Of a DNA stretch of 34,742 nt, positions 4,769 through 33,980 are shown in pieces. The notes below the pieces were generated by a model. The model did not search any database, was not told the DNA's origin, and was given only the letters and a program-made list of their open reading frames with translations. Where the stretch lies: sequence record SRR2962707_4129. One strand, given 5' to 3'. Both the position numbers and the translations under genes were made by a program. Each line of letters begins with the position of its first letter. The stretch's first letter is position 1.

Positions 4769-6394
<1,626 letters not shown>

Positions 6395-6397
<3 letters not shown>

Positions 6398-8640: not shown

Positions 8641-8661
8641 ATAAACTATCCCCAACTAAAA

Positions 8662-9066
8662 ATGAAAAAAATCGCTCTTATCATGTTGGTTGCTGTCTTT
8701 GTAGTCGAGGGCTACAGTCAGAAGCCGGAAACCCAAGTTTTGTTAGTCCCAAGCGCGGATTCTACGCGACTAGTGTCGTTCTCATTGGATGCCATGTCAG
8801 TCATTGATGGTAAGTGCTTAGGATGTCATTCTCCAAATGCACGAAATGAGAAGTCCAGAAATGCCATGCAGTGGGAAAAACTGCAATCGATGGGCAAAAC
8901 AGATGCTTACGCGCAGTTGGATGAAATAATGGAAGTATTGGAAGAGGGTACTATGCCTCCATCCAGAATGGTTGAAAGAAATCCGGGAATGAAATTAACA
9001 GATGAAGAGGTCGAAAAACTTAAAAAATGGGTTGAAGCATCTCTAGCTAAGCTAGAATCGAAATGA
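8662..9066 (+). CDS. Exported monoheme c-type cytochrome (Haem_bd-like)
   Basis: Signal peptide, CLGCH heme motif, distal GTMPP Met, LTDEE..LKKW ending. Confidence 0.82.
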   Translation: MKKIALIMLVAVFVVEGYSQKPETQVLLVPSADSTRLVSFSLDAMSVIDGKCLGCHSPNARNEKSRNAMQWEKLQSMGKTDAYAQLDEIMEVLEEGTMPPSRMVERNPGMKLTDEEVEKLKKWVEASLAKLESK

Positions 9067-11773: not shown

Positions 11774-11842
11774 GCCTCTAAAGATAGGCACGCTTATTCA
11801 ATTTGAGATTAGAATCTGATATTCTGGTAGAAACTCTTGAGC

Positions 11843-12226
11843 CTATTTCTGTAGATCCGGAACCAATTCAATAAATGTGAATGGAAGGTCAAGAAGATCG
11901 CTATAATCCTCTCCAGCTTCCATCATGTCCTCATCATACTGATCATAGTACCATCTTACGATTACTTTGGTGCCATTCTTCTCCAGGCTCTTGATCTCTT
12001 TTAGCAAGTCGTAAATACATTTAGAAGAACTGGTGTTGAAGTATTCCATTTTAATACGCACATCCAGCTTATCAGACTGGCTAGTGGAAAGGGCATATCT
12101 AACGGGTTCGTAAAACCTCAGCGAATTTTCAGGGCTTGATCTACCGTACATTTTGAATACTCCTTTTGATGGGTCTAGAAGTACGGCTGGTGTGTTTATG
12201 GTTGGTCGAATCTTGATAGCTTCCAT
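11843..12226 (-). CDS. SiaC-family (DUF1987) phosphoprotein
   Basis: T..TP, GRSSPEN...FY.P, EYFNTSSSK (phospho-Thr motif), WYY...DEDMMEAGEDY. Confidence 0.87.
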   Translation of the reverse strand: MEAIKIRPTINTPAVLLDPSKGVFKMYGRSSPENSLRFYEPVRYALSTSQSDKLDVRIKMEYFNTSSSKCIYDLLKEIKSLEKNGTKVIVRWYYDQYDEDMMEAGEDYSDLLDLPFTFIELVPDLQK

Positions 12227-16558: not shown

Positions 16559-16597
16559 ATTCTAAAACTTTCAGATTCCAAAATCTTAGTAATGTTA

Positions 16598-17779
16598 TCA
16601 ATCCCAAAACGCTGGTTTTTCCAGTGTTCCATAGATTCTACAGTCGCTACAAATTTCATGGATAAGCATGATATTTGGTGGGTAGAAAGTCCCTGGGACT
16701 GCCTCCCCACCAACGATAAAATCGTGAATCAAATTATCTTCAAAATCATAGTTCCCGGAGAGAATTTCAATAGTTGGTACAGGTACTTCAAGATCCTTAC
16801 AAAACAAAAATATTTTACTTGGTTTGTAGCCGTCATTCGTCCAGATACCTTCATCAAAAAATATGTATTTCTCAGATATTCCTGAAACTTCAAAATATCC
16901 AGCCACTATATCAGAAGGGTCATCAATATTTGAAATATTTCCTATAATGGTACCTTTTTGGCGATCAAAAAATGATCCGGAAGATTCATTATTCTCCTTG
17001 AGGTCTTTATAGTACTGATATGCGGAGGACGAAATTCTGTATGATTTTACCAACATGGAATACTTGCCAATTAAATGTGGTTCACTTTCAGTAATGTATC
17101 GCAACGGGAATTCAGATAGGTTGCTGTTTATCTGCCCACTGGTAGATGTGATAATCAATTCATTAGATCGATCCTGCAGGTAGCATCTCCTTAAGGATTG
17201 CTGACGATAATCAATGGTTAGAGTGGTGGGATTAAAAACGTATATTGATTCATATGGAACGGTAAGCTGATAATTTTCTTCATATTGGAATCTATAGTTG
17301 TGATTTTCTTCACTGACTCCAGTGATATCTATTAGAAACTGAACACCTGTTTCAAATCCGCCACTTGTGTCTGATCGAAGCTCAAGATATCGCCCATACA
17401 CATCTGTAATGTCAGGTGTTTCCAACAGCGTTTCGCGTTCTGATTGATAGTACGTACCATCTTTTGTTTCTATGGTTAATTGGTAGTTTCTTCCTGAAAT
17501 TCCAATAAACGGATCAATAGGTTCATAAACACCATCATCTACCTCATTGAATGTGGTGACATTTCCGAGATTATCGGTTACCAGAACACATGCACCAGTC
17601 GCTGGTTCCGGAACGGAATCATCAAACGAATAGGAGTATTCCAATTTCACATATTGTTCTTCAGAAAGATTGGTGACAAGGGCATCTACGACTAATACTT
17701 TTCTAGTATCAACCACCTGTAATTCATAAGGTTCAATACAGCTAACTGAAAAGAATAATATGATGATATACTTTTTCAA
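16598..17779 (-). CDS. DUF4249-family outer-membrane lipoprotein (copy 3)
   Basis: Lipobox SVSC-IEP and the same conserved blocks; TTG start. Confidence 0.85.
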   Translation of the reverse strand: MKKYIIILFFSVSCIEPYELQVVDTRKVLVVDALVTNLSEEQYVKLEYSYSFDDSVPEPATGACVLVTDNLGNVTTFNEVDDGVYEPIDPFIGISGRNYQLTIETKDGTYYQSERETLLETPDITDVYGRYLELRSDTSGGFETGVQFLIDITGVSEENHNYRFQYEENYQLTVPYESIYVFNPTTLTIDYRQQSLRRCYLQDRSNELIITSTSGQINSNLSEFPLRYITESEPHLIGKYSMLVKSYRISSSAYQYYKDLKENNESSGSFFDRQKGTIIGNISNIDDPSDIVAGYFEVSGISEKYIFFDEGIWTNDGYKPSKIFLFCKDLEVPVPTIEILSGNYDFEDNLIHDFIVGGEAVPGTFYPPNIMLIHEICSDCRIYGTLEKPAFWD

Positions 17780-17819
17780 ATCTTATTTTGCTTTGTCGGT
17801 ATATGTATCATCGAACCTC

Positions 17820-19001
17820 TCATTCCCAATAACCTGGTTTCTCTAAATTCCCATAAATCCTACAATCACTACATTCAGCTGGCGCCAATACAATGGTATC
17901 ATCGTATGGTGTACCTGGGAGCAATGGTCCCGTAAAATCGAATGTATAAATAAGACGGCCATCAAAATCAAAGTTTCCAGCCAGAATATCTGCAGTCAAA
18001 ACAGTATCCAACATTCTTTTACAATTAGGTAGAAAGTCTTCTGGTCGGTATCCGTCATCTGCCCATGATCTTTTTTTGAATATTTTGTAATCTTCATAGA
18101 CACTGGCTACTTCAAAGAATCCAAGTACTGGCTCGCTCTGATCGTTCACATTTCTTACATTACCTATTAATGCTCCCTTTTGCTTGTCGAAGAATGAGCC
18201 CGCAGATTCATTGTTTTCCTCTATGTCTTTGTAATATTGATAAGCTCCGGAGGATATTCGATAAGCCTTTACAACTAGTGAATATTGACCGATTAGATTA
18301 GGCTGTTCTTTAGGGATAAACACAACGGGTAGCTCACTCAGGTCACTATTGATTTGACCACTTGAGGTAGCAATGAGAAGACCATTCGACTTGATATTTG
18401 CATAACATTTCCTAAGTGAGATTGGCCTCCGGTCTATGGCGCCTGTTTCATAATTATATTCATAACGAGAATCATAAGCTACCACAACTTCATAATCTTC
18501 TTCATATTCGATTCGATAGTGATGACCTTCTTCGGTAGCCCCAGAGATGTCTGCAAAAAATCGCACACCTTCATCGAATCCTTCACTTGTTTCAGATCTA
18601 AGTGATTGAAAATTGCCATACACATTGATCCTGGTAGCAGGTGCTAAAAGTGTTTCTTCTTCTGATTCATATTGCTTACCGTCTGGTGTTTGAATAGAAA
18701 GCTGATAGGTTCTGCCAATTTCACCAGAAAAAGAAATATATGGTTTATAAAGCCCAGAGCTAACTTCTTGAAGCTCCACACTGTTTCCATTTTCATCACT
18801 GATGATAACCTGAGCTCCGGAAACCATCTCGGGATAACTGTCCTTTAATGGATAGGAGTAGGATAGCTGAACGAACTGCATATCAGGCTCATTTGTTAGT
18901 AGCGCTTCTACTACCAATACTTTTTTCGTTTCCAGTTCTTCAGGTTCGTATGGCTGAATACAAGCAGATAATAAAATGAGTATGGTTAAGTATTTATTCA
19001 T
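17820..19001 (-). CDS. DUF4249-family outer-membrane lipoprotein (copy 2)
   Basis: Start moved to ATG 19001 (MNKYLTILILLSAC-IQP); same conserved blocks. Confidence 0.85.
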   Translation of the reverse strand: MNKYLTILILLSACIQPYEPEELETKKVLVVEALLTNEPDMQFVQLSYSYPLKDSYPEMVSGAQVIISDENGNSVELQEVSSGLYKPYISFSGEIGRTYQLSIQTPDGKQYESEEETLLAPATRINVYGNFQSLRSETSEGFDEGVRFFADISGATEEGHHYRIEYEEDYEVVVAYDSRYEYNYETGAIDRRPISLRKCYANIKSNGLLIATSSGQINSDLSELPVVFIPKEQPNLIGQYSLVVKAYRISSGAYQYYKDIEENNESAGSFFDKQKGALIGNVRNVNDQSEPVLGFFEVASVYEDYKIFKKRSWADDGYRPEDFLPNCKRMLDTVLTADILAGNFDFDGRLIYTFDFTGPLLPGTPYDDTIVLAPAECSDCRIYGNLEKPGYWE

Positions 19002-19009
19002 TCTCTGAT

Positions 19010-20188
19010 TTACTCCCAAAATGAAGGTTTATTAATACTTCCATGAACTCGGCAATCCCCACACTCTTCAGGTACCAACACAATCCCCGTACTATAGGAA
19101 GTACCTGGAATAAAATCCCCAATTGTAAACACATGGATCACTCTTCCATCCAATGAGAGATTGCCATTTAACAAATCAACGGTTCTCACAGTGTCAACCT
19201 GATTCTTGCAATACCCAAGGAACGTTTCAGGTAACAGGCCATCATCTTGCCAATTTCCTGCCTCAAAAAATTGAAAACTTTCAGAAACACCTGCCACTTC
19301 AAAATACCCAAGAACGGGCTCTGCCTGATCATTGGAATTCTGAATATTACCTACAAGGGTGCCTTTCTGACGATCAAAGAATGAACCTGCAGATTCATTG
19401 TTTTCTTCCAAATCTTTGTAATACTGATATGTGGAAGATGATATTCGATAGGGCCTTACTGTAAGTGAATAATTACCAATTAATTCAGGCTCTTCCTGAG
19501 ATATGTAGATAATGGGAAGCTCCTTCACCTGGCTGTTTATTTGTCCGCTTGATGTGGCTATCAATAGTCCTCTGGATTCCTCATGGATGTAACATGTTCT
19601 TACCGGAAATTCTCTTCGATCGATGCTAGAGGTAGCAAAATCAAATTCGAACAGGGATTCATATGGAACACGAATTTCAAAGTCCTCTTCGAATTCCACT
19701 CTGTAGTTATGAATGTCATCATCAAATCCATTAATATCTGCGAAAAAGCGGACACCTTCTTCAAATCCATCGCTTGTTTCGGATCTTAAAGATTGATAGG
19801 TGCCATAGACTTCTGCAACCTCACCCGGAGTAAGAAGCTCTTCCTCGGTAGATTGATAGTGCTTTCCTTCGGAGGTTTCGATGTTCAGTTGATACTTACG
19901 CCCAACAACGCCCACAAAAGGCGTAACCGGTTGGTAGATTCCTTCTATATCCTCCTGAAAAGTGAATGCATTACCCAGGTTGTCAGTTATTACGACACTG
20001 GCACCAGATACAAATTCTGATTGAATTCCATCCAGAGAAGTAGAATACTCCAATCGAACAAATTGCTTGCCGGGAATATTGGTTACAAGTGCATCAACTA
20101 CCAATACTTTCTTGGTATTCTTTACATCAATGCTGTAAGGTTCAATGCAAGAAGCGAAAAGGATCAATATGGTAAGATGCCTTCTCAA
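19010..20188 (-). CDS. DUF4249-family outer-membrane lipoprotein (copy 1)
   Basis: Lipobox FASC-IEP; TTG start overlapping the receptor TGA (TTGA); same conserved blocks. Confidence 0.85.
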   Translation of the reverse strand: MRRHLTILILFASCIEPYSIDVKNTKKVLVVDALVTNIPGKQFVRLEYSTSLDGIQSEFVSGASVVITDNLGNAFTFQEDIEGIYQPVTPFVGVVGRKYQLNIETSEGKHYQSTEEELLTPGEVAEVYGTYQSLRSETSDGFEEGVRFFADINGFDDDIHNYRVEFEEDFEIRVPYESLFEFDFATSSIDRREFPVRTCYIHEESRGLLIATSSGQINSQVKELPIIYISQEEPELIGNYSLTVRPYRISSSTYQYYKDLEENNESAGSFFDRQKGTLVGNIQNSNDQAEPVLGYFEVAGVSESFQFFEAGNWQDDGLLPETFLGYCKNQVDTVRTVDLLNGNLSLDGRVIHVFTIGDFIPGTSYSTGIVLVPEECGDCRVHGSINKPSFWE

Positions 20189-22932
20189 AATTTGAAATTG
20201 TAGGTAATGGTTGGTATAGGCGTTGGAAAGATGCTAAGCTGATATCCTTTGACCTCTTCATCTTCTACTTCGAAGAAGATGGAATAAATGTTGTCTCTAC
20301 CCAGCAAGTTGTAGATAGAGAACGTCCATGATGAGTGTGTGAACTTCTTCAGTTTAGGACTCACGTTGACATTGAAGCCAAGATCGACCCGGAAATAGTT
20401 TGGTATTCGGAACTCATTTCGATCTGAGTACAGTATATTCTCAGACGATTTGAAATTCCACTTTCCAACTGGGTAGGTAACTGGTATGCCACTGGAATAA
20501 ACGAGATTCAAGGTCATGGTCAATCGACGTGTAAACTTGTAGTTTGTCACCGAATTGAAATAGTGGGGTTTGTCATAGCCGGTAGGGAAGAAGACGCCAC
20601 CATTTACGGTCTCTGATGGACTTCCTCCATCAAGGCGCACAAATGACCTGGAATAGGTATAGTTTAACCATCCGCTAAGCCATCCGGTGGATTTGGATAG
20701 TGAGAATTCGACACCATAAGATTTGCCATCTCCTTGTAGCAGATCTGTCTCTATATTGGGGTTGAACTGAAGCTCTGCACCTGTCTTGAAATCAAGCAAA
20801 TTATTGATATCTTTATAGTAAGCCTCTACAGAAGCTTCAATCAAGTGCTCACCAAAGAAATTCTTGAAGTATCCAATAGATACCTGATCAGCAAGTTGTG
20901 GTTTGATGAATGGTCCCGAAAGTCGCCAAACATCGGTTGGAGCGATGGAAGCTGCATTGAGTAATAAGTGTATGTTTTGTCTTGTTCGTCCGTATCCAAT
21001 CTTCACCGAGCTTCCAGAACCCACAAGATATCTGCCTTGAATTCTAAACTCAGGTCCATGATTGCTGTGTATAGTTTCTCCCTTACTATATTCCTTGGTT
21101 CCAATTATGGATGATGATCGTTTTGGCTCACCTTCCTGATAGATATTGATCTCCGCAGGCCCATAGGAATTGAACAAGGAATACCTGACTCCTGCATCAA
21201 ACGCCAGCTTGTCATTCAGATGGTATGAAGCTGAAACATAGGGTGTCAATTCAAGTGCTTTCTCCTCATCGATGGTTTGCGCCTCTATTAATGAACTTGC
21301 ACCATTTGGTGTTTTCTTGCCAGGGCTTAGTGTATAGGCTTTTGATTCTATCCCGAATTTGTAATTAAGGTTTTGGTTGACGAAGTAATCCAGTTTGACA
21401 GCAGTTCTAAACTCATTCACAAAGAGATCTACATTGAATGCTTGTGTTGGTAGCACGTCATAACTTGATCGATAGCTGAAATTACTATTTCCAACTTCTA
21501 GTATTCCGAATAGGTTGTCGCTAAAAATGTGTTTCCAACTCGCTCCAAGTATTTTGTTGTTATATGAAAAATCACTGAAGGATAACAAGGTGTCTGACTG
21601 CACCTTGAATGCGTCATAGCTATAATAGGCAGTTACAGAAACCTCATCCGTATCACTGAGTTTTGTGTGCGTTTTGAGTGTAAAATCATAAAAAGAGACT
21701 TCATTATTGCCGATAGATGAATCTTTGAATTTGTTCAAAATATATTGGGAATAGGTACCTCTTCCATTAAGCATGAAGCTGGTTTTAGCATCTTTAATAG
21801 GTCCTTCAACCTGAATCTGTGAGGTAACCAGGCCCAGCCCTCCATTTACCTCAAGCTCTTCCTCATTTGGTTGTTTTGACTTTATATCAAAAACCGATGA
21901 CAGCCTGCCACCATATTCGGCAGGGATTCCGTTTTTATAAAGCGCTAGTTCACCGACACCCCTTGAATTGAATGCGGAGAAGAATCCGAAGAAATGGTTT
22001 GTTGTGAAGACGGTGTTATTATCTATCAGAAATAGGTTCTGATCCGCTTTGCCTCCACGAATATTTATACCTGCCGAACCTTCGCCAACGTTTTGTACTC
22101 CAGCGGTTGAAGTGGCAACCCTGATTATGTCTTTTTCTCCTAAGAAAGCAGGTAGGATGGCAACTTTCTTTGGATCGATTGAAGTCAATCCCATTTGGGT
22201 AGAGTTGATGTTCTTCTCTCTTTGAGCACTAACTACTACCTCTTCCAAAGCCACAACATCAACATCCAGTTTTACTTCCAACTCCCCATCAGAGTAAAGG
22301 TTGATTTTGCGCCGTGTGTCTATGGTTGTTACAGATTGAAAATTCAATTCATTGATACCACTTGGAAGCGTGATGGAAAATCTCCCTTGCTCATCAGTGA
22401 TGGCACTTACAAACGGTTCCACACTAAAAATGTACACTCCATCCACAGGACCACTTTCGGAAACAACTCGTCCGGTAATGGTGCTGTTGCTTCCTTTCAC
22501 GAAGCGTTTGATATTGCCTATGACGAATAGCCGGTTCTCATCATTACTGTTAGATTCATTGCGAAACAATACTTCTTCCAGATAATTGGTGGGGTCATCA
22601 TCTGTCACATTTCTTTTTTGTACTTGTGGAACAACCACTGTGGTATTGTAGAGAAGTATGACTCGATTACCGTCTTTAAAGTAGTTGAGTTTGGTATCTT
22701 CAAGCAGTAAGTTAAGTGCCTCTTCATCTGGTAATTCCAGCTTAACCTTATTCTTATGAATATTGATTCCATCAACCCACTCAGAACGGAAGAAGAAGTC
22801 CAGGTTTTTAGTTGATGATTCAAATGCTTTAATAGCTTCCGAAAGAGGAATACTATCGTTTGTTATCTGTACTTCCTGTGCCTCGACAGAAAGAAGAGCA
22901 ATGACTAATAGAATGCTTAGTATATATCTCAT
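20185..22932 (-). CDS. TonB-dependent outer-membrane transporter with N-terminal extension and CarboxypepD_reg-like domain
   Basis: Signal peptide; TDEQGRFSI; LEEVVV TonB box; plug NIRGGKADQNLFLID, YGGRLSSV; barrel ending PTITYNFKF. Confidence 0.93.
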   Translation of the reverse strand: MRYILSILLVIALLSVEAQEVQITNDSIPLSEAIKAFESSTKNLDFFFRSEWVDGINIHKNKVKLELPDEEALNLLLEDTKLNYFKDGNRVILLYNTTVVVPQVQKRNVTDDDPTNYLEEVLFRNESNSNDENRLFVIGNIKRFVKGSNSTITGRVVSESGPVDGVYIFSVEPFVSAITDEQGRFSITLPSGINELNFQSVTTIDTRRKINLYSDGELEVKLDVDVVALEEVVVSAQREKNINSTQMGLTSIDPKKVAILPAFLGEKDIIRVATSTAGVQNVGEGSAGINIRGGKADQNLFLIDNNTVFTTNHFFGFFSAFNSRGVGELALYKNGIPAEYGGRLSSVFDIKSKQPNEEELEVNGGLGLVTSQIQVEGPIKDAKTSFMLNGRGTYSQYILNKFKDSSIGNNEVSFYDFTLKTHTKLSDTDEVSVTAYYSYDAFKVQSDTLLSFSDFSYNNKILGASWKHIFSDNLFGILEVGNSNFSYRSSYDVLPTQAFNVDLFVNEFRTAVKLDYFVNQNLNYKFGIESKAYTLSPGKKTPNGASSLIEAQTIDEEKALELTPYVSASYHLNDKLAFDAGVRYSLFNSYGPAEINIYQEGEPKRSSSIIGTKEYSKGETIHSNHGPEFRIQGRYLVGSGSSVKIGYGRTRQNIHLLLNAASIAPTDVWRLSGPFIKPQLADQVSIGYFKNFFGEHLIEASVEAYYKDINNLLDFKTGAELQFNPNIETDLLQGDGKSYGVEFSLSKSTGWLSGWLNYTYSRSFVRLDGGSPSETVNGGVFFPTGYDKPHYFNSVTNYKFTRRLTMTLNLVYSSGIPVTYPVGKWNFKSSENILYSDRNEFRIPNYFRVDLGFNVNVSPKLKKFTHSSWTFSIYNLLGRDNIYSIFFEVEDEEVKGYQLSIFPTPIPTITYNFKF

Positions 22933-23645
22933 CTCAAAATCGATTCACAATATGCAATGACAGCTACGAGAAGCACTTCAGGGTCCCGCCTGGCTGAAAA
23001 ATTATCTTTCACAAACTTTTTAATTTCCTTTTTCCGGTCAGGAAACAATTCATTCAGTGATGCAGGTCTTTTGTATTCGATGGTTTGGTCCTGGTATTTT
23101 ACATAATATTCCCTCTTTTCATCAAATTCGTATCCGGTTTGGCCCATGGTACCTGATTTGATCTCTTTGGAGTAGCAAGCGAGATGCTTACCCTTGACGA
23201 TCTTTCTGTAGAATCCTTCTTCTCCAATTTTTGCATGTTTGAAGTTCAGAAACTTCTGATTGTGGATAGTAAAAGAATCTACTTTAGCTTGATTGATCAG
23301 CAATGACTTTTCCCCATTCAAGCTCATTTCCCAACTCCAGATAAGGAGCAGATCTTCAGAGGTATTGTAAATGATATTCATTTTGGAGTAAATCCTTCCT
23401 TCGAAAGACAATTCTCCATTTCGATCCCATCCTCCTTTGTAGAACGGTGTTTGACCGGGGCTTATGATTTGCTCTGTGTTTTGATAGTAATGAGTTCCTT
23501 TCATGAGCGGTGTTTCAATCTCGCTCGCTGTAGAATTGTACCATTCGTCCAGATTTCCATCCAGTTGCGGCAGTTGATCAAATTCCTGCGACTGCACAAG
23601 ACCAAAAAAGCAATTTAGAATTAATAGAAGGCTAGGTTTTTTCAA
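22929..23645 (-). CDS. Exported hypothetical protein, first gene of the transporter operon
   Basis: TTG start, signal peptide, 4-nt overlap with the receptor start; FPDRKKEIKKF C-terminal helix. Confidence 0.75.
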   Translation of the reverse strand: MKKPSLLLILNCFFGLVQSQEFDQLPQLDGNLDEWYNSTASEIETPLMKGTHYYQNTEQIISPGQTPFYKGGWDRNGELSFEGRIYSKMNIIYNTSEDLLLIWSWEMSLNGEKSLLINQAKVDSFTIHNQKFLNFKHAKIGEEGFYRKIVKGKHLACYSKEIKSGTMGQTGYEFDEKREYYVKYQDQTIEYKRPASLNELFPDRKKEIKKFVKDNFSARRDPEVLLVAVIAYCESILR

Positions 23646-24799: not shown

Positions 24800-24819
24800 A
24801 ATACCTAAAATTAGGTATT
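24800..24819. promoter_or_regulatory. 7-2-7 palindromic operator copy 1 (AATACCTAA-AA-TTAGGTATT)
   Basis: Perfect 9-bp inverted repeat 52 nt upstream of the S8 ATG; recurs at 29679-29698. Confidence 0.8.
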
Positions 24820-24871: not shown

Positions 24872-26329
24872 ATGAATCTTGTTAAAGTAACAGTAACATT
24901 TAACGAACTTACAAAGCAGAAAGAAGGACTCAAAAATAGCCTTCTTGAATTATTCATTCCGAAGGAGCGCGACAAGCATCACACTATCAAAATTTTTCAT
25001 CGTTACGGTTTCTGTGTTACTTCTGAAAGTGAACTAACAATGACTTTTGAGGGACCAAAAGAAGGGTTTGAGACCCTTTTTGGAACAAAGTTGACAACAT
25101 TCAGAATGCCAAATTCGGATACTGCTTCTGAGCCATTATTCTGGTATCCTAAGGATGGTGAAGTATGGAATTATAATCATGAATTGAAGGGTGTAATAGA
25201 TGAGGCTTATATTCAACAACCTCATTATTATACATTTGATTCAGTCTCTTTTCCTGAAGTCTTGTATCATCATTTGCGTGTACCCAATGACGTAGCAAGG
25301 GTTCTGGGTGCCTCAAAGGTTCATGCTTTAGGCATTAATGGACAGAATGTAAAAGTGGCAATGTTGGATAGCGGTTTTTATTTCAATCACGATTACTTCA
25401 AAGAAAAGAATTATTCGACTTCAGTTATTTTAGGACCTGGAGCAAGAGATTGTGAACACGATTTTCATGGTCATGGAACAGCCATGGCAGCCAACTTACT
25501 GGCAATAGCACCGGGTGTAACTTTTACTGGGATCAAAATGGGAATTGAGCCTGATCCTGATTCGGGTTTAGCCGCAGGAAACAGTGGCACCAAAATGATT
25601 GAAGCATTTCAACTGGCGCTATTGTCTGAACCAGATATCATTTCAATGAGTCTGGCCTACGATTTAGTAACTTCGATAGCAGGGAGACAACATAGAAAGA
25701 AATTACCCAATGGATGCAAAGGTCTGGAAGCTTTAATGCTGAGGGCAATTCAAAAAGGCATTACAATTGTTTGTGCAGCGGGAAATGGCCATGTGGGTTT
25801 TCCAGGAATGATGGATGAGGTAATTTCTGTTGGAGGTGTTTATGAAGATAGTACGGGATCTCAGCAAGCATCTGATTTTACGAGTGCCTTCACTAGCAGA
25901 GTCTATTCAAATCGTCATGTGCCAGATATATGCGGATTATCAGGACTAATTGATAATAACGATCCAAATGATCAAAAACCGATGGTCGGTGGACTCATGA
26001 TGGTGCCTGTACAGCCCAAAAGTAAATTGGATAAAGATACAAGGGATGATACTCCAGGAAACGATGGATGGTCAATGATAGGAGGGTCTTCTTCTGCCAC
26101 TGCTCAAGTTGCTGGAGTATGCGCACTCATGTTACAGAGAAATCCGTTATTAAAACCTTCGGAGATTAAGAAAATTCTTCAGAAAACATCAAGGAATATC
26201 GTGAGAGGTAAGTCCAATAAGGAAAGTAATGAATACAAAGTCCTAGAAGCTACAGAAGAACAACCAGACCTTGCTGTTGGTTATGGTCTTGTTGATGCTT
26301 TTAAGGCATGCAAGTCAATAGAGACTTAA
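24872..26329 (+). CDS. S8 family (subtilisin-like) serine protease with N-terminal prodomain
   Basis: Asp VAMLDSG, His HGHGTAMA, oxyanion CAAGNG, Ser GGSSSATAQVAGVCALM, VGYGLVDA; ATG 24872 preferred over TTG 24845; no clear signal peptide. Confidence 0.9.
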   Translation: MNLVKVTVTFNELTKQKEGLKNSLLELFIPKERDKHHTIKIFHRYGFCVTSESELTMTFEGPKEGFETLFGTKLTTFRMPNSDTASEPLFWYPKDGEVWNYNHELKGVIDEAYIQQPHYYTFDSVSFPEVLYHHLRVPNDVARVLGASKVHALGINGQNVKVAMLDSGFYFNHDYFKEKNYSTSVILGPGARDCEHDFHGHGTAMAANLLAIAPGVTFTGIKMGIEPDPDSGLAAGNSGTKMIEAFQLALLSEPDIISMSLAYDLVTSIAGRQHRKKLPNGCKGLEALMLRAIQKGITIVCAAGNGHVGFPGMMDEVISVGGVYEDSTGSQQASDFTSAFTSRVYSNRHVPDICGLSGLIDNNDPNDQKPMVGGLMMVPVQPKSKLDKDTRDDTPGNDGWSMIGGSSSATAQVAGVCALMLQRNPLLKPSEIKKILQKTSRNIVRGKSNKESNEYKVLEATEEQPDLAVGYGLVDAFKACKSIET

Positions 26330-26376
26330 TAGGATACCTCGAAAAGAAATTAATATGTCACCAAACAAATAATAGT

Positions 26377-26970
26377 ATGCCCAGAAAAACATGTATCCAA
26401 TACTTGAATTTAAGTGATAATGAAAATTATCAACAGATTTATGCTAGCCAGATTTATGGTACCTTTTTTACTGTCCAGGCAAGGTTCAATGTAGTAGATA
26501 AGGAGCCAGAAAAAGGAGACTTTTTTGTTGAAAGTATGGACTTCAAGGTTATCAATTATAAAGGCACTATGGATATAGGAATAGCGGCTATTGAAGGGCC
26601 GGGACAATTTAGAGAAGTTCTGGAAAACGATGCAATAAAAATGTTTCATCTTAAGATGAGAGCAATGTGTCCTGGTCAGCTATCTAATATTCCACAGGAT
26701 GAAATTGATGGATTTCCCGTAAATGAGTGGATAAACAAGGACGATTACGTCTATATTTCAAGAACACTCAAAATGCTTCACGATGATGAGGTAGCATTTG
26801 CTCATGGTATTTTTGATACCGAGTTCTATTACAGAGAAGGGTTAAAAGAAGATAATGATTATCAACAACGGATTCCACGACCTAAGCAAACGGCGTTAAC
26901 CACCAATGATCCACTATCATTCGTAAGCGGATGGGTATGTACAGAAAATATTGCAAGAGTTTTGAAATAA
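26377..26970 (+). CDS. Hypothetical protein between the protease and the kinase
   Basis: Open frame 26308-26970; likely start ATG 26377 (MPRKTC); no signal peptide or known motif. Confidence 0.7.
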   Translation: MPRKTCIQYLNLSDNENYQQIYASQIYGTFFTVQARFNVVDKEPEKGDFFVESMDFKVINYKGTMDIGIAAIEGPGQFREVLENDAIKMFHLKMRAMCPGQLSNIPQDEIDGFPVNEWINKDDYVYISRTLKMLHDDEVAFAHGIFDTEFYYREGLKEDNDYQQRIPRPKQTALTTNDPLSFVSGWVCTENIARVLK

Positions 26971-28844
26971 GTAGATTCATTATTTTGATTCTACTATTGA
27001 TATACTCACAACATTCATCAGGACAGTATGAGGATGTCAGAGAATCATTTTTCATGAATGTAAAGAACTTCAAATATCATGAGGCCATTGAGAATGCTGA
27101 TGAAGTTGATGATGTGGGGTGGAGATCTGCCCTAAACCTTCTTGGAAATACGCTTTACGAAGCTGGACAGAAAAAACCAGAAGATTTTGAAAATAGTACT
27201 AATGAAATAAAAAAGCTTGAGAGAGCCTTTAATCAAAATGGAGATGAACAGATTCTGATTAACCTTTTGTGGGCTTACCATTATTTCTATTTGGATCCTT
27301 ACACGGAAAAGCCGATTGATTTTTTCACACAAGCATATAAGATGGCAAAATCGAATGGCACTGAGGAGGAGATTAAGTTTTGCATCTACTCAATTTTAAA
27401 ACTTTATCACTGGGAATTGTATCAATCAAATGATGACATGCTGGAATACCTTGAATTGTATGAAAGCTATGTTGATGACGATGCAGACCAGTTTCATTTA
27501 AAAATGAGCTGGTTTTTGTATGAGTTGAGAGGAATTGATTTTGAAGTTAATCTAGGCGAAAACTATGTGAAAGACTTTAATGTCCTGATGAAGTCTTTTC
27601 CTGATGATCATCTTTTCTGGGTTGAGTTCAATATTATGCTCGCTATTTACAAGAAATATCTTGGCACAGTTAATAATAATGATATGCTATTGGATGAATC
27701 ATCTCAGTTATTACTTGCCACCCTAAACAAGGCAGGGAATGAGCCTCATCTTAGGTATTTGATGTTCAGAGCGTATACCCAACTTTCTGAAATAGCGTTA
27801 AGAACAAAAAAAATAACTAGTGCTAGAGCATATCTTAAAGAAGCTGAAAAATATATCTACTTGAATGATTCGGTAAGGGCATATTATCACCTGAACAGGT
27901 ATCTAGCGCCTATTCTATTTGAGTTGGGAAAACTTGACAGTGCATACTACGCTTTGCAAGAAGCCGAGGTACTTCGAAACAAACTGGGAGCACAAGTAAA
28001 TTCGCTCAGAATATCTCAATATCAATGGAAATTTCTAACCGACGAAAAAGAAAGACAAGTAGTACTTGAGAAAGAGGCAAAGATTCGAATTGTTGCAATT
28101 CTTCTTGTTTTGATTGTATTGGGCCTAATAATCAGCATACTAATCAATAGGAATGCCAAAAGAAAGGAACTACTGGCTATCAAAGACAAAGACATCCAAT
28201 CTCAGAAGGTCACTAGTCTTTTGAAGGACCAGGAACTTGTTTCAATAAACGCCATGATCGAAGGTCAGGAAAAAGAGCGTAAAAGAATTGCTGAAGATCT
28301 TCATGATCGCTTGGGCAGCACGTTATCAGCTGTGAAAATGCACTTGGAAGTAATGGCCGAAGATGATTCACGATATGAAAAAATCAATGCAATTGTCGAT
28401 AAAGCAGTCAATGATACGCGAGAAATAGCACACAACATGTTGTCCGGAGTGCTAACCAATTTCGGATTGATGGCTGCACTCCAGGATCTGAAGCTAACCA
28501 TCGAATCCGCCAATCACTTTAATTTGAACCTAAGCAGCATTCAATTTGATGAGCGACTGGATGCAGAAACAGAGCTACATATCTATAGAATAATTCAGGA
28601 ACTTATTAGCAATACCTTAAAACATGCCAATGCAACTGAGGTTAATTTGGAATTGAAGAGAATGAATAACCAAAGGACCTTCATTTCTTATACTGATAAT
28701 GGTACTGGTTTTGATCTTGATACAGCTGATAAAGGGATGGGTCTGATGAACATCAAAAGCAGAGTAGAAAAGATTAATGGAACTTGGAAAATTAGTTCTT
28801 CTCCATCTCATGGAGTTGAGGTAATAATAGAACTTGAAAACTAA
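26931..28844 (+). CDS. Sensor histidine kinase (HisKA_3 type) with large periplasmic helical/TPR-like domain
   Basis: N-terminal hydrophobic segment, about 350 aa helical region, TM IVAILLVLIVLGLIISILI, H box ERKRIAEDLHDRLG, YRIIQELISNTLKHA, DNGTGF, GMGL. Confidence 0.92.
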   Translation: MGMYRKYCKSFEISRFIILILLLIYSQHSSGQYEDVRESFFMNVKNFKYHEAIENADEVDDVGWRSALNLLGNTLYEAGQKKPEDFENSTNEIKKLERAFNQNGDEQILINLLWAYHYFYLDPYTEKPIDFFTQAYKMAKSNGTEEEIKFCIYSILKLYHWELYQSNDDMLEYLELYESYVDDDADQFHLKMSWFLYELRGIDFEVNLGENYVKDFNVLMKSFPDDHLFWVEFNIMLAIYKKYLGTVNNNDMLLDESSQLLLATLNKAGNEPHLRYLMFRAYTQLSEIALRTKKITSARAYLKEAEKYIYLNDSVRAYYHLNRYLAPILFELGKLDSAYYALQEAEVLRNKLGAQVNSLRISQYQWKFLTDEKERQVVLEKEAKIRIVAILLVLIVLGLIISILINRNAKRKELLAIKDKDIQSQKVTSLLKDQELVSINAMIEGQEKERKRIAEDLHDRLGSTLSAVKMHLEVMAEDDSRYEKINAIVDKAVNDTREIAHNMLSGVLTNFGLMAALQDLKLTIESANHFNLNLSSIQFDERLDAETELHIYRIIQELISNTLKHANATEVNLELKRMNNQRTFISYTDNGTGFDLDTADKGMGLMNIKSRVEKINGTWKISSSPSHGVEVIIELEN

Positions 28845-28850
28845 GGTAAC

Positions 28851-29516
28851 ATGAAAGGGGATACAATTAAAGTATTGTTAGCAGATGATCATGAGCTTAT
28901 ATTAGACGGTTTGAAGCTGATATTGATGAATGATGAAAAGTTTGAGGTGGTGGGTGAAGCACATGATGGTGAAGAACTATTGAATGAGCTAAAAGTCATT
29001 CCTGAGCTTGATATAGTAGTACTAGATATTAATATGCCTAAGAAAGATGGCATTCAGGTAACAAAGGAAATAAAGTCTACCTACCCAGAGGTAAAAGTAT
29101 TGATTCTATCTATGTACAATAGGAAAGAGTTTGTAAAAAACTTGGTGGATGAAGGGATAGATGGATATATCATGAAAAACGCAGGAAAGGTTGAGCTAAT
29201 AATGGCATTGGAGACACTGGCTGGTGGTGATCCATATTATGGTAAGGAGATTACTAATACCATCATGAAAAGTTATCAAAAAAGAAAAGTCTTTAACAGT
29301 CCTATGGAAGTGGAGTTATCTGAGAGGGAGAAGGAAATAGTTGCTTTGATAGCCAATGAAATGACTACACTTGAGATTGCAGATAAGCTTTTCATTAGTC
29401 CTTATACAGTAGATACACATCGCAAAAACATTCTCTCTAAGCTAGGTGTAAAAAATGCTGCTGGCATTATGAGATTTGCCTTGCAAACAGGCATTATCAA
29501 AGGTTTTGACCTTTGA
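28851..29516 (+). CDS. NarL/LuxR-family DNA-binding response regulator
   Basis: LADDH, LDINMP, LSMY receiver; HTH LSEREKEIV...IADKLFISPYTVDTHRKNILSKL. Confidence 0.95.
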   Translation: MKGDTIKVLLADDHELILDGLKLILMNDEKFEVVGEAHDGEELLNELKVIPELDIVVLDINMPKKDGIQVTKEIKSTYPEVKVLILSMYNRKEFVKNLVDEGIDGYIMKNAGKVELIMALETLAGGDPYYGKEITNTIMKSYQKRKVFNSPMEVELSEREKEIVALIANEMTTLEIADKLFISPYTVDTHRKNILSKLGVKNAAGIMRFALQTGIIKGFDL

Positions 29517-29678: not shown

Positions 29679-29698
29679 AATACCTAATATTAGGTATT
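29679..29698. promoter_or_regulatory. 7-2-7 palindromic operator copy 2 (AATACCTAA-TA-TTAGGTATT)
   Basis: Perfect 20-bp palindrome 61 nt upstream of ATG 29760; followed by TTG-N20-TAGTTTCA (29697-29727), a promoter-like spacing. Confidence 0.8.
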
Positions 29699-29759: not shown

Positions 29760-30101
29760 ATGGCTACTCACCGATTTAACAAAGAAAAAGATATAGGAGA
29801 TGATGAAAAAGTAACCTTCACGGTTGATTTCATCTCGGACGGCAACACTGGAATGACAGATGTTAACATTCCCGGAGAAAATGATCCTGAAATAAAGGAT
29901 GAGGGAACTGTCTCCCTTGGTATTGGAAAAGACTTGAAGTCCTCAAGAACAATTGTGGTTTCAAATATTTCGAATTTGAACAAAAATGAAGAGGATATAA
30001 CGATATCCTATAAAGTTAATGGAGTAGAGATACAAAGATATTCCAAGAAGAAATCAGTCGATGAGGCACCACTTATCATACTGAAAATTAAATTCAAGTA
30101 G
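29760..30101 (+). CDS. Small beta-rich hypothetical protein
   Basis: 113 aa, AT-rich leader, no signal peptide, 1 nt from the next gene. Confidence 0.75.
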   Translation: MATHRFNKEKDIGDDEKVTFTVDFISDGNTGMTDVNIPGENDPEIKDEGTVSLGIGKDLKSSRTIVVSNISNLNKNEEDITISYKVNGVEIQRYSKKKSVDEAPLIILKIKFK

Positions 30102-30102
30102 A

Positions 30103-31401
30103 ATGAGAATATTAGTCATTTTATTGATTGCGATAATAATAAATCCAATCTGGGCACAAAACGAAGCAGACGTAGAACAACTACGTCCCGTTTCTAATCC
30201 TGCAACATCCATTCTTGGTTTGCAACCTACTGTCACACTTAATCCAAAATCAAGAGAAATGTTGCAAGCATCATTGTTCTCTTCCTTCCAGGAGAATGGC
30301 TCACCGAATATTGCGGATGATTTCAGTATGGAGTTTGCACCTTACTGGTTCAAAGATCATGGGTTATCACTTGAAGAGTACTTGTTTGCCAATGTTGTAG
30401 ATCAGGTATTTAGGAATGCCTCTTTTTCTATTGCTTCCAGTAAAAATTTCATTCTAGGAGACTCTTCCGCTACAGAGGCAATTTCATTCGGATTTCGAAC
30501 ATCATTCCATCTAGGTAATACTGTAGATCGAAAAGCAATTTTGGATTATAAAGCAAATTTAAATGGGATACAAAGTTTTAGAATTGAGATTGCTTCAAAA
30601 TATGAAGAGTTGGTTGATACACTTAATCATGATAATCCGAACTTCAGGGCTGCCTTGGAACAAATCAAACCACACATTGTCAATGAACTGATAGACTCTG
30701 ATTTGGTCAAATCCAGAAAGGAGGCTGAGCAGTTGACTTTGGAAAGCATGGATGAAGCACTTGGGTCAGAAGCTGCTGATTATTATGAATTGGGAGATGC
30801 ATTGTATGAGAAGCTGGCGGAAATTGTTGATTCCAAACAAGTTTTATCGCAATTTCAGAACTACTTGGATGATCGTGACGGAATTTATGTGGATTTCGCA
30901 TACGCAACACTCTTAAATTTTCCAACCAATAGTTTTGATGAAAAGTATATTTCAGGTCAATCTGTTTGGTTAATGCCAAGCTTCAACTTTAAAGGCAAGG
31001 TAGATTTCCTGTCGCTATCTATCATATCAAGATTTAACTGGTATGATTTGGACTTTTACAACAATTACTTCCCTGACTCAGAAGTCTATGAAAACAATTT
31101 TGACATTGGGGCCTCCCTCAATGCCCACTTCAAAAAATTTGAGATTCAGCTTGAAATGGTTAAAAGAAAAAGTTCAACAAAAGTTCCAGACGGGACGAAT
31201 GCGGGTGGGATGCCTTTGTTTTATGAATTAGAAAACAATGACTTCCAAACCGTTGGTTCACTGGCCTACCGAATCAATGAAAAAGTTGTCCTCAACTATT
31301 CACTCGGGAATGCCTTCGAACCCATTTCAAATCCAGAGGCTACTTTGGTATCCATTCTTGGTTTGAACATGGCTTTTGGCCAGCAAAAAGTGGGTGAGTA
31401 A
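30103..31401 (+). CDS. Exported hypothetical protein, possible outer-membrane beta-barrel with helical insertion
   Basis: Signal peptide ending IWA-Q; alternating beta-strand pattern in the C-terminal half ending LGLNMAFG. Confidence 0.7.
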   Translation: MRILVILLIAIIINPIWAQNEADVEQLRPVSNPATSILGLQPTVTLNPKSREMLQASLFSSFQENGSPNIADDFSMEFAPYWFKDHGLSLEEYLFANVVDQVFRNASFSIASSKNFILGDSSATEAISFGFRTSFHLGNTVDRKAILDYKANLNGIQSFRIEIASKYEELVDTLNHDNPNFRAALEQIKPHIVNELIDSDLVKSRKEAEQLTLESMDEALGSEAADYYELGDALYEKLAEIVDSKQVLSQFQNYLDDRDGIYVDFAYATLLNFPTNSFDEKYISGQSVWLMPSFNFKGKVDFLSLSIISRFNWYDLDFYNNYFPDSEVYENNFDIGASLNAHFKKFEIQLEMVKRKSSTKVPDGTNAGGMPLFYELENNDFQTVGSLAYRINEKVVLNYSLGNAFEPISNPEATLVSILGLNMAFGQQKVGE

Positions 31402-31442
31402 GTACTTTAAAATCTAAAATGGATATAGTATTTCTATAAGAA

Positions 31443-33485
31443 TTGGAATCTGTAACCAAAATATTGAGAGACCTATTTGCTCATGAAGCTGTTAGGGCAG
31501 TTCTCGATTCAAATGAATTCTACTTCCAGAAAGCATTGGATAAATACATGGAATTCCTTGAATTGGAACTACCTGATAAAGAGAATAATATATATGAGGA
31601 GTTGATTTTAGAATATGCCAATTTTGAAGTTCAGGGAGCTTATAAATTCGGTCAGTTTCTTTCTAGGAAAGCGCCTAAAACATTTGGACTCAAAGGTCCT
31701 GGTTTATTCACCAAACATGCTCAATATAAGATTCTTCTTACCGTAGGAGAGCTTATTTCTTATATCGATCGAAATGCTTACAACAAATCAGAATGGAATG
31801 AATATGAGGACAATCGCACTATGGCTAGATCCATGGTGCGTCAGGACCCTTGGGTCATAAACTTACTCAAGTTCAAATCCAACGGAAATAACTTAGAAGG
31901 AATCAAAAGCCCAAATATTCTAAATGCCTTGGCGTTCCTTTCTTCTCCAAGTGATCACACCACGGTATTGTCTTTAAAACATAGAGCACAGATCCTGAAG
32001 AGCTTTGGTTATAAGTCTGGGGATGTTGCTGATTTTGACCAACTGGTCCTTGACTTCTTTTCATTGCATAGGGATCAAATCACACTGGCCAATTCAGATA
32101 ATTTTTCAACACTTATCTCAGTATTACTTTATAGAAGGCCTTTCAGGATTCAGTGGGATAATGCCTTGAGTGAAAAACTTGGAGGCAAGGTTGAAAAGGA
32201 AGAGTCGTTTCAAGCTACCGTTACTGAAGTTGAAGACGTTCAGGAGGAAGAAGAAACTGTTGAACGTGATCAAGAGGCCTTATCCATTGTCCTAAGCATT
32301 GCCGGTTCTCCAACGGCGCAAGCTGATGATCTTGCTAAGAGAGATCGTTTGGGTCGACAAAAAATGATTGACGCATTGGCTCAACTTATGAGTCATCCGG
32401 AACAGGGAACTCCCTTTACAATTGGAATCTTTGGAAATTGGGGAGCGGGTAAAAGTTCATTGGTTGAATTGGTGTTTACACAGTTGAGATCTTTATACTC
32501 AGGTAAGAATAAATCATTTAGGAAATTCAAATTCATTCAATTCAATGCATGGGAATATGAGCGAACAGAAAACATTGCTGTGGGCTTAACACAGGAAACA
32601 GTAAAAGGATTGATGAATGACGAAAATATAATTGGGAAAATTATCATCAGAGTTAAGTATGCATTTAAGATGCATAAGTGGGCTTCAATAAGTTCGATCA
32701 TTGGTATTATTGGACTGGTTTATTCTTTTTTTTTCCTGGATGTTCATACGAATAATAGGATTCGAACAGAAACGCTTGAAGTTTCACAACCAATTAATGG
32801 GATCCTTGATACCCTGAAATTGACCCGTGAAACGATTGAAGTAGTGAATGATGATTCTCTTAAGATTACTCTAACAACCACAACTGAGTATTTCCCACAG
32901 AAGGACTCAATGCTGGTTACCAATAAAAGCAGAGTTGAGCCTATTGAAGATACCAAGACCGATAATGACACTTATGATATTTGGCATATTTTGAAGCAAA
33001 TCACCTCTGGTAGCGGAGCTTTGATCCTTCTTTTATTTTTTAAACGATTGAGCGACAACCCTCTCACAACTAAATTTTTATCTAACACAAAGATTCCAGA
33101 TTATAAAGAGCAACTTGGCTTGGTTCCCGTGCTCAAGGAACAAATAAAGGCGCTGAGGGACATTACTGTTGGATCCCGAAAGCGTATGATTGTCTTTGTT
33201 GATGACCTTGACAGATGTTCCCACGAAACGATTATGAAGACCCTGGAAGCTGTACATAGAATATTAGATCTTAAGAAAACCATCGTTCTAATTGCTGTTG
33301 ATCATCGTATTGCACTTCAGGCAATCGCAGAAAGCATGGGGCAAAATGATCCAACAAGAACAAAAGAGGAAATGGCAAGAGATTTTCTAGGAAAGCTAAT
33401 ACAACTTCCTGTTAGAATTAAAGATCCAACAGATGAAAGCATTGCCAATTTTATAGATAACTCACTGTTTGTAAACAAAGATTGA
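31443..33485 (+). CDS. KAP-family P-loop NTPase, N-terminal part (extra N-terminal domain, two TM helices)
   Basis: LGR..., TIGIFGNWGAGKSS Walker A, FNAWEY, two TM segments, IVFVDDLDRC Walker B, FLGKLIQLPV. Confidence 0.88.
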   Translation: MESVTKILRDLFAHEAVRAVLDSNEFYFQKALDKYMEFLELELPDKENNIYEELILEYANFEVQGAYKFGQFLSRKAPKTFGLKGPGLFTKHAQYKILLTVGELISYIDRNAYNKSEWNEYEDNRTMARSMVRQDPWVINLLKFKSNGNNLEGIKSPNILNALAFLSSPSDHTTVLSLKHRAQILKSFGYKSGDVADFDQLVLDFFSLHRDQITLANSDNFSTLISVLLYRRPFRIQWDNALSEKLGGKVEKEESFQATVTEVEDVQEEEETVERDQEALSIVLSIAGSPTAQADDLAKRDRLGRQKMIDALAQLMSHPEQGTPFTIGIFGNWGAGKSSLVELVFTQLRSLYSGKNKSFRKFKFIQFNAWEYERTENIAVGLTQETVKGLMNDENIIGKIIIRVKYAFKMHKWASISSIIGIIGLVYSFFFLDVHTNNRIRTETLEVSQPINGILDTLKLTRETIEVVNDDSLKITLTTTTEYFPQKDSMLVTNKSRVEPIEDTKTDNDTYDIWHILKQITSGSGALILLLFFKRLSDNPLTTKFLSNTKIPDYKEQLGLVPVLKEQIKALRDITVGSRKRMIVFVDDLDRCSHETIMKTLEAVHRILDLKKTIVLIAVDHRIALQAIAESMGQNDPTRTKEEMARDFLGKLIQLPVRIKDPTDESIANFIDNSLFVNKD

Positions 33486-33506
33486 TGCCATTTAAACAAT
33501 AATTGT

Positions 33507-33980
33507 ATGGTAGATCATAAGGAGAATACACAGGTCAAAATTACAAATGATCAGCTATCAACTAAGAATACTTCATGGGAAGTACAGGTAGAAAGTCTTG
33601 GATTAATTTCACTTAAGGAGAGTCCTGAGGAAATTGGAATTTTCAAGAAATATGTTAGAATGTTTCAACTTAAAAATCCTAGACAAATAAGGAGGTTGAG
33701 AAATAGTTATAGACTTCTAAAGGTAATGGAAGAGGGTAATGGCGGTATTTCACTAATGTTCATCATTTTTATGATGGAATATCTTATGAGTAAGTTGAGT
33801 GATTCTACGATTGGCAACAACATGGTAAATTTCGACGTGGACGTATTTACTAATTTGACAATTAATAAAACCATAAACAATGAAATAAAAGAGCTTGGTA
33901 TTCATGATTTGAACTCACTAGCTTCTATTGGACTCCAGGTTATACTACCATCTTCTCATGAAAGTAATTTTGAAGTTTGA
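33507..33980 (+). CDS. C-terminal portion of the KAP NTPase (same frame, separated by one TGA)
   Basis: Contains NPRQIRRLRNSYRLL, the KAP C-terminal helical motif; in frame with 31443-33485. Confidence 0.75.
   Translation: MVDHKENTQVKITNDQLSTKNTSWEVQVESLGLISLKESPEEIGIFKKYVRMFQLKNPRQIRRLRNSYRLLKVMEEGNGGISLMFIIFMMEYLMSKLSDSTIGNNMVNFDVDVFTNLTINKTINNEIKELGIHDLNSLASIGLQVILPSSHESNFEV

Follow-up and report, generated by a model that had tools for sequence, protein, structure and literature searches.

Introduction

Among the described systems closest to the locus reported here, agrBDCA of the staphylococci comprises the membrane cysteine protease AgrB, the precursor AgrD of about 46 amino acids (aa), the polytopic HPK10 kinase AgrC and the LytTR regulator AgrA. 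In ComQXPA, ComP is a HisKA_3-type kinase and ComA a NarL/LuxR-type regulator. In CpxP/DegP-CpxA, LiaF-LiaS and NreA-NreB, the kinase of the system is modulated by a small protein that is either encoded alongside it or induced by it; in Cpx, a co-regulated serine protease removes the modulator, and LiaS and NreB are HisKA_3 kinases with NarL-type partners. NarL binds an inverted repeat of heptamers in a 7-2-7 arrangement. Sensor kinases of the tetratricopeptide repeat (TPR) type with NarL partners are abundant in genomes of Bacteroidota; to our knowledge they are functionally almost unstudied, and we know of no peptide quorum sensing in Bacteroidota. The present report concerns a stretch of 34,742 nt from sequence record SRR2962707_4129, called the window when its full length is meant, and a cassette in it (24872..29516) that encodes an S8 protease, an accessory protein of 197 aa, a HisKA_3 sensor kinase and a NarL-type response regulator.

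The ComQXPA census, in the accessible part of its report, records the system from Firmicutes only (PMC4008528). Bacterial gasdermins are found beside protease genes in 43 of 50 cases, mostly C14 or CHAT, and have a conserved Cys and, at the C-terminus, a short peptide that inhibits, as stated in the accessible part of that study (bioRxiv 10.1101/2021.06.07.447441). A narrow literature search, which left subscription literature outside, showed, among the papers listed, nothing on a cassette like the one described here.

A sequence-only reading of the window had proposed that the protease cuts the accessory protein, then taken to be an orphan, into a signal that is sensed in the periplasm by the kinase. 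The analysis favors a different reading, at somewhat less than an even chance: a positively autoregulated two-component cassette of marine Bacteroidota in which a cytoplasmic protein, gated by a protease, modulates the kinase or serves it as a co-sensor.

Gene organization and recurrence

Four plus-strand genes are packed between 24.8 and 29.5 kb of the window. Open reading frame (ORF) calls and Pfam searches agree with the tight, co-oriented arrangement that had been read from the sequence. The genes encode the S8 protease (24872..26329, 485 aa, PF00082 at E 1.6e-28), the accessory protein (26377..26970, 197 aa), the sensor histidine kinase (26931..28844, 637 aa, HisKA_3 plus HATPase_c) and the NarL/LuxR-type response regulator (28851..29516, 221 aa, a REC domain plus a GerE helix-turn-helix by Pfam and NCBIfam). 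The protease ORF is open from a TTG at 24845; the ATG at 24872 was taken as the start. The last 40 nt of the accessory gene overlap the kinase ORF, so that the ten residues after Cys188 of the accessory protein are encoded over the first kinase codons.

The window was compared with locus L001, with 32 more loci from a metagenome scan and with L036, L044 and L045 from genome sampling. L001, from a Cyclobacteriaceae metagenome-assembled genome, is the closest relative and has the four genes in the same order, with identities of 55% for the protease, 46% for the accessory protein, 54% for the kinase and 81% for the regulator. A full-length kinase homologue, sensor included, comes straight after the accessory gene in 27 of the 28 loci with at least 600 nt of downstream sequence, and in 30 of 31 when L044, L045 and the window are added. 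The exception is L028, with an S8-like ORF in the kinase position and a convergent kinase C-terminus. A NarL-type regulator then follows wherever the sequence continues (20 loci plus L044, L045 and the window). In most loci the accessory stop codon falls within the kinase ORF or directly adjoins it. This order is kept although the accessory relatives are only 23-49% identical, and every other neighbor changes. The accessory gene, the kinase type and the regulator thus occur together almost without exception, and the test of recurrence on which the sequence-only reading had staked itself did not refute it; of the four-gene order that it proposed, the last three genes are near-constant, with S8 adjacent or fused in a sizeable minority only.

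Genome samples of 401 genomes each were drawn at the level of phylum and order, centered on the genome behind L001. The accessory family is present in two of the 401 phylum genomes and in four of the 401 order genomes, one of the latter being a weak match to a fragment of 28 residues. The window sensor domain, used as a single query, hits the same two phylum genomes and gives one weak match besides, in genome G240 (E 7e-4), which was rejected; it belongs to a LytTR-type kinase of a different module.

These data bear on the possibility that the accessory protein and the protease are passengers, regulon members unrelated to signaling which serve, for example, in intracellular protein turnover and hold the head of the operon only for the regulated promoter there. 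Such an explanation is unlikely. It would fit with the highly variable composition of the regulon downstream, and with the fact that contacts of the accessory protein with kinase or protease are something we infer. It sits poorly with the place that the accessory gene keeps at 23-49% identity, immediately 5' of the kinase gene and in most loci overlapping it, and the accessory gene is never found without this kinase type in the sampled genomes.

Some loci differ in their surroundings. In L015, an extra ORF of 179 aa (8525-9064) without Pfam match stands between the accessory gene and the kinase homologue; it could be a frameshifted N-terminal fragment of the kinase or an additional component. 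In L011, the gene of a 1915-aa RHS-repeat protein (2142-7889) ends 70 nt 5' of the accessory gene. In L008, genes for a type I restriction-modification methylase and an AAA_13 ATPase lie just 3' of the target gene of the cassette.

Operator and regulon

The palindrome TACCTAA-NN-TTAGGTA occurs at exactly two sites in the window, and no others are added when up to two mismatches are allowed, with 0.13 then expected by chance. Operator 1 (24802..24817, TACCTAA-AA-TTAGGTA) is an exact 7-2-7 match 70 nt 5' of the protease ATG. Operator 2 (29681..29696, TACCTAA-TA-TTAGGTA) is likewise exact and lies 79 nt 5' of the next operon. A related palindrome, TACCCAATGGTAGGTA, is found 112 nt upstream of the L001 cassette. 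The core TACC-N8-GGTA has 41 sites in the 359.6 kb of the window and loci together, versus 4.1 +/- 2.0 in shuffled sequence (at most 10 in 200 shuffles), which is a tenfold enrichment. In 18 of 30 testable loci the core stands no more than 200 nt upstream of the cassette's first gene, concentrated at 20-112 nt and mostly at 50-112 nt; in seven of 19 testable loci it is present from -60 to +400 nt of the regulator stop. Additional sites precede later genes, for instance three in L012 and three in L018. The operator that the sequence-only reading had placed ahead of the cassette is a palindrome that is exact in the window and conserved across loci. Operator 1 is a putative binding site of the NarL-type regulator, through which the cassette would regulate itself. 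By analogy with other NarL-type proteins, the regulator probably binds the palindrome and activates both promoters.

The genes behind the sites vary from locus to locus and encode outer membrane protein (OMP) beta-barrels, DUF5723, PD40 and VWA proteins, a GerE-only protein, a peptidase C1 and many unknown proteins. Most of the products begin with a signal peptide or a lipoprotein-like N-terminus. In the window, the target operon (29760..33980, +) is specific to the window and encodes proteins of 113 aa, 432 aa (with signal peptide), 680 aa (the KAP NTPase) and 157 aa. No homologues of the 113-aa, 432-aa, KAP and 157-aa proteins were found in the 36 related loci (E 1e-5) or, by pairwise comparison, in L001. 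A conserved output made up of an envelope protein and a KAP NTPase was ruled out for want of counterparts in these loci; the sequence-only reading had named the pair as outputs of the circuit, and they are not conserved with the cassette.

The KAP-family P-loop NTPase (31443-33485; PF07693, E 9.7e-35) has hydrophobic segments inserted in its NTPase domain. It shows only partial similarity to the defense proteins QatA, PifA and PDC-S20; the QatA-like match scores 109 bits against a cutoff of 600 and covers about 80 residues. The Qat partner genes QatB, QatC and QatD are missing from the window, the neighboring ORFs have no PADLOC match, and the window thus does not hold a Qat system. From its position behind the second operator, the NTPase is probably induced by the cassette in the window organism only.

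Two further observations concern regulon genes in other loci. A GerE-only protein of 124-125 aa (L012 11207-11584, L026 6324-6698; 50% identical between the two) is encoded directly 3' of the regulator, behind a copy of the operator, in S8-bearing flavobacterial cassettes. Possible roles are those of a second-tier regulator or of an anti-activator. In L001, a second operator-like site, TACCCAATTCCAGGTA (14994-15009), is located near the 5' end of a convergent unit of two genes for proteins of 162 aa and of 445 aa, the latter with a signal peptide. This position places the output genes of L001 on the opposite strand, and they are unrelated to those of the window.

Accessory protein

Homologues of the accessory protein align only from Met24 (nt 26377) of ORF 26308-26970, which gives 197 aa. 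Only two relatives came up in a word-based search. When 1.84 billion cluster representatives (clusters at 50% identity) were searched with a profile, 381 matched at E<=1e-3, 159 of them at E<=1e-10 and 12 at E<=1e-30; the protein is not the orphan for which it had been taken. Most members are 175-250 aa long. Among 81 aligned members no Pfam family rose above noise (at most three members matched, best E 0.0034), the window protein was blank in NCBIfam and PADLOC, and a look-up in the ESM Atlas returned nothing. The clusters are unnamed, save for one fusion called 'subtilisin family serine protease'.

The alignment has about 20 invariant or near-invariant residues. Invariant columns are Q25, Y27, G63, R153 and C188, and the conserved motifs are QxIYxSQxYGTFF, NYKG and FDxEFYYREG. 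The motifs are followed by a linker that differs widely in length among members and by a C-terminus in which G-x-x-C-(P)-x-(S) precedes 8-11 residues, most of them hydrophobic. The invariant Cys is Cys188 in the window, ten residues from the C-terminus (8-11 across the family).

An AlphaFold2 model made with the family alignment is all-beta (pLDDT 89.4, pTM 0.86). Residues 190-196 are predicted as a strand inside the sheet, with a pLDDT of 93 for the block; only the linker, at about residues 156-186, is weaker (pLDDT 67-80). The model of P0061, a natural fusion, repeats the beta domain and the C-terminal strand. Contrary to the sequence-only reading, the tail as a whole is not of low structure. 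Neither a signal peptide nor a membrane helix was predicted in the accessory protein. Foldseek searches of the PDB gave no match to the model at E<=1e-3, VIA searches of 48,161 chains gave 30 rows at Z>=2 with a best Z of 3.3 and no chain at Z>=5, and the family profile gave only noise against PDB sequences (E about 1). No gasdermin was seen among the Foldseek PDB hits, the 30 VIA rows, or the Pfam and PADLOC results.

Protease

The catalytic residues of the window protease, D166, H201 and S407, and the oxyanion N305 align with D32, H64, S221 and N155 of subtilisin BPN', which completes the triad as first read. In the same alignment an N-terminal extension of about 135 aa stands at the position of the propeptide, and this is what had been read as a prodomain; no Pfam propeptide family was matched at E<=0.01. 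The protein has no N-terminal hydrophobic segment, in line with the earlier impression that a clear signal peptide is missing. A hydrophobic N-terminus is missing in all eight cassette-linked S8 proteins, and the trypsin-like and C14 proteases of other cassettes also have no signal peptide. The window protease does not have the form of a secreted subtilase, which carries a signal peptide and an I9-type propeptide. In the predicted topology the sensor is outside the cytoplasm, and accessory protein and protease are within it.

The survey of proteases took in the loci with about 1.2 kb or more of upstream sequence, which number 24 when the near-identical pairs L026/L027 and L008/L009 are each counted once. 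A protease gene of S8, trypsin-like or caspase-like type adjoins the cassette in 11 of them. An S8 gene is directly upstream and co-oriented in eight loci (window, L001, L012, L018, L019, L023, L026, L030), and an S8-like ORF is directly downstream in L028. L044 has no S8 gene in the cassette and encodes a trypsin-like protease (11102-12028, +) 21 nt 3' of the regulator. L017, again without S8, has a caspase-like C14 gene (7039-7866, -) divergent from the accessory gene, with the operator in the common spacer of 105 nt. The remaining 13 loci have no protease gene within the available ±4.5 kb. Several flavobacterial loci use one chromosomal slot beside Aminotran_4 and PRA-PH genes, where the cassette is accompanied by an S8 gene, by a C14 gene or by no protease gene at all. 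Natural fusions of an N-terminal S8 domain with a C-terminal accessory domain number at least three among the 150 listed relatives, and the three keep the terminal Cys motif. Taken together, the adjacency, fusions, swaps and absences give the protease a functional link to the accessory protein, in which it is yet facultative and replaceable.

Exchange of S8, trypsin-like and C14 proteases beside one substrate family would also be expected if the accessory protein were a protease-activated effector of gasdermin-like logic, in which the C-terminal strand inhibits and cleavage frees the protein to act on the membrane or some other target; the role of the two-component system would then be limited to the control of expression, in an envelope-stress or defense response. 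The patchy distribution of the family (two of 401 and four of 401 genomes) and the partial likeness to QatA and PifA of the KAP NTPase in the window regulon point in the same direction. We regard this as quite unlikely. No likeness of the fold to gasdermins or other pore formers was found (best VIA Z 3.3; nothing by Foldseek at E<=1e-3), PADLOC gives no match, and the accessory sequence has no hydrophobic or amphipathic segments for membrane insertion. The constant neighbor is the kinase, not the protease, and the neighboring regulon genes resemble ordinary envelope proteins.

Kinase and regulator

Hydropathy, together with the N-termini of 12 homologues, gives the kinase a signal-peptide-like N-terminus and one strongly hydrophobic helix at about 387-405. 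The HisKA_3 and HATPase_c domains are matched by PF07730 (E 8.5e-10) and PF02518 (E 2.5e-10), and the phosphoacceptor H458, in EDLHDRLG, is invariant in 18 homologues. The predicted periplasmic domain of about 350 residues has no Pfam match. Its language-model neighbors in the ESM Atlas (residues 32-385) are TPR proteins of Bacteroidota, at a score of 0.95; no Pfam TPR family was matched at E<=0.01, and the TPR-like nature of the sensor domain is a lead only, from these neighbors. The periplasmic placement of the domain in the sequence-only reading agrees with this predicted topology, and its TPR character is seen in the language-model neighbors only. In the regulator, the receiver and GerE domains are matched by PF00072 (E 3.2e-24) and PF00196 (E 7.6e-17), with D59 as the acceptor. 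A terminator-like hairpin plus T-run from a consensus scan lies at its 3' end (29497..29516, +); the scan found nine such sites versus 6.0 +/- 2.8 in shuffles, and the hairpin is weak evidence alone.

Mean p-distances are 0.73 for the accessory protein and 0.77 for the sensor domain, versus 0.48 for the kinase core and 0.46 for the regulator. ComX and ComP's N-terminal domain show a like contrast in the accessible part of PMC4008528, and the gene logic resembles that of comQ-comX-comP-comA (PMC4008528). On this analogy the cassette would be a peptide autoinduction system: the protease would cut before the invariant Cys, a C-terminal Cys peptide of about 10-30 residues would leave the cell via an unlinked exporter or by lysis, and its binding to the periplasmic TPR-like domain would induce the cassette and its neighbors. 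This would make it a Bacteroidota counterpart of ComQXPA, in which a Cys peptide from a carrier of about 190 aa, possibly thiol-modified, is read by the TPR-like sensor of neighboring cells, and we think it very unlikely. The C-terminal segment, variable except for its one invariant Cys and preceded by a linker of very variable length, the strict co-occurrence of the family with this sensor type, and an operator position that suggests positive autoregulation are all compatible with it. It is opposed by the missing signal peptides of the accessory protein and protease in the face of a periplasmic sensor, by the lack of an exporter in the cassette or the window flanks (which hold a TonB-dependent-receptor-like gene and DUF4249 genes), by a 'leader' that would be a conserved, confidently folded domain of about 185 aa, by the last seven residues, which the models of two family members place in a strand within the sheet, and by the 13 of 24 loci without a nearby protease gene; sensor domains and small proteins, moreover, commonly evolve fast anyway. 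The signal proposed in the sequence-only reading, cut from the orphan and sensed in the periplasm, finds no direct support in these data.

Proposed function

The co-occurrence of the genes, the adjacency or fusion of S8 and the common, conserved operator together support functional coupling and autoregulation. We return to the favored reading, that of a cassette with a protease-gated modulator or co-sensor. The TPR-like domain of the kinase would sense something periplasmic, and the kinase would phosphorylate the NarL-type regulator. The regulator would bind TACC-N8-GGTA before the cassette and before neighboring genes, with organism-specific outputs that are mostly exported envelope proteins; here these would be the secreted 432-aa protein and the KAP NTPase. 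Synteny, overlap and fusions suggest that kinase and accessory protein work jointly and that the protease has the latter as its substrate or partner. Produced along with the kinase, the beta-sandwich protein most likely acts on the kinase's cytoplasmic side, as a co-sensor or feedback modulator, and the invariant Cys beside the C-terminal strand is likely its functional site. The protease may act on this protein by cleavage or degradation, probably at the variable linker ahead of the Cys, and so gate its effect on signaling. The protease would be a facultative partner, S8 in the window and trypsin-like or caspase-like elsewhere.

Several points weigh against this reading. The physical interaction of the accessory protein with kinase and protease is one that we infer from gene context. 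The accessory protein could be a mere first member of the regulon and not a signaling component. A cytoplasmic partner is not the commonest design for a periplasm-sensing kinase. With no adjacent protease in 13 of 24 loci, either proteolysis is not obligatory or a distant protease serves. The AlphaFold2 model of the fusion P0061 (mean pLDDT 68.4, pTM 0.49, linker below 50), in which the domain arrangement is not confident, gives no sign of the linker docking in the protease. Complex predictions of the accessory protein with kinase residues 32-385 and 406-637, made with alignments unused and an uncertain fold of the partner, gave an ipSAE of 0.00 twice and weigh on neither side. A mirror-tree comparison of the accessory protein with the sensor in 15 loci gave a Pearson coefficient of 0.70, a partial coefficient of 0.63 and a Spearman coefficient of 0.09; because the Pearson signal rests on a few close pairs, co-variation was rejected as evidence. 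The accessory tail itself, for which the sequence-only reading had suggested co-variation with the sensor, is too short and variable for alignment.

The cassette defines a kinase subtype by its partner family (at least 381 clusters at 50% identity), a conserved operator and a swappable cytoplasmic protease. It is a concrete module of three or four parts, kinase, regulator, accessory protein and protease, that can be tested. If the accessory protein is a protease-gated modulator or co-sensor, the module would be a new route for cytoplasmic input into a periplasm-sensing kinase. Were it a signal precursor, this would be a new kind of cell-cell signaling, and autoinduction would mean strain-specific sensing of density or of damage to kin. 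With the conserved operator, regulons of uncultured marine bacteria can be predicted from the sequence alone.

Other features of the window

Outside the cassette, four tandem DUF4249 paralogues of 392-399 aa each are encoded at 13776-23645 (-) as an expanded receptor/lipoprotein array, downstream of a gene for a 915-aa CarboxypepD_reg-containing, TonB-dependent-receptor-like protein and a gene for a 238-aa protein. A separate signaling cluster at 135-4765 comprises a stand-alone receiver, a HAMP kinase with an NIT (nitrate/nitrite-sensing) domain, a second receiver, a CheX-like phosphatase and an unknown protein of 266 aa. A sigma-70 promoter scan found 33 sites versus 36.2 in shuffles, which is no excess; the consensus is unsuited to Bacteroidota.

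Comparison with known systems

For an autoinduction system, ComQXPA of Bacillus subtilis is a better analogue than Agr. Both ComQXPA and the cassette have four adjacent genes on one strand in the order enzyme, substrate, kinase, regulator (PMC4008528), an order that recurs in L001. A HisKA_3 kinase and a NarL/LuxR regulator are present in both, in the window by Pfam. In both, too, substrate and sensor vary far more than kinase core and regulator, for ComQXPA as given in the accessible part of PMC4008528. The enzymes differ, ComQ being an isoprenyl transferase (PMC4008528) and the enzyme here an S8 protease. The ComX pre-peptide is short and has a conserved, C-terminal Trp (PMC4008528), unlike the folded domain of about 190 aa with a Cys and no conserved Trp. 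ComP senses via 8-10 membrane helices, and the kinase here via a soluble, periplasmic domain that is predicted to be TPR-like. The first two genes have no sequence homology between the systems.

The cassette resembles agrBDCA in the order protease, precursor, kinase and regulator, with the accessory protein in the precursor's place, in autoregulation with a second promoter, which is putative here, and in a Cys within the C-terminal part of precursor or accessory protein. No agr family was found in the cassette by Pfam; it has S8, a HisKA_3 kinase with one membrane helix, GerE and a folded protein of 197 aa.

Gasdermin operons resemble the cassette in their swappable proteases (C14, subtilase and others), in a C-terminal segment on a beta core and in a conserved Cys (bioRxiv 10.1101/2021.06.07.447441, accessible part). 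An adjacent protease is likewise seen here in 11 of 24 loci and in three fusions. The Cys is C-terminal here and N-terminal there, and the constant partner here is a two-component system.

The mechanism proposed for the cassette would have the feedback logic of CpxP/DegP, carried over to the cytoplasmic side and to proteins that are unrelated. CpxP and DegP are periplasmic and LiaF is a membrane protein, whereas the accessory protein and protease of the cassette are predicted to be cytoplasmic; the accessory proteins of Cpx, Lia and Nre have no relationship in sequence or fold to that of the window. Neither the two-component core nor the subtilase is out of the ordinary for its family. The new elements, as judged from sequence and model comparisons, are an accessory family without counterpart in Pfam, NCBIfam, PADLOC or PDB, its near-obligate pairing with one type of sensor kinase, a replaceable and predicted cytoplasmic protease that includes fusions, and a conserved operator.

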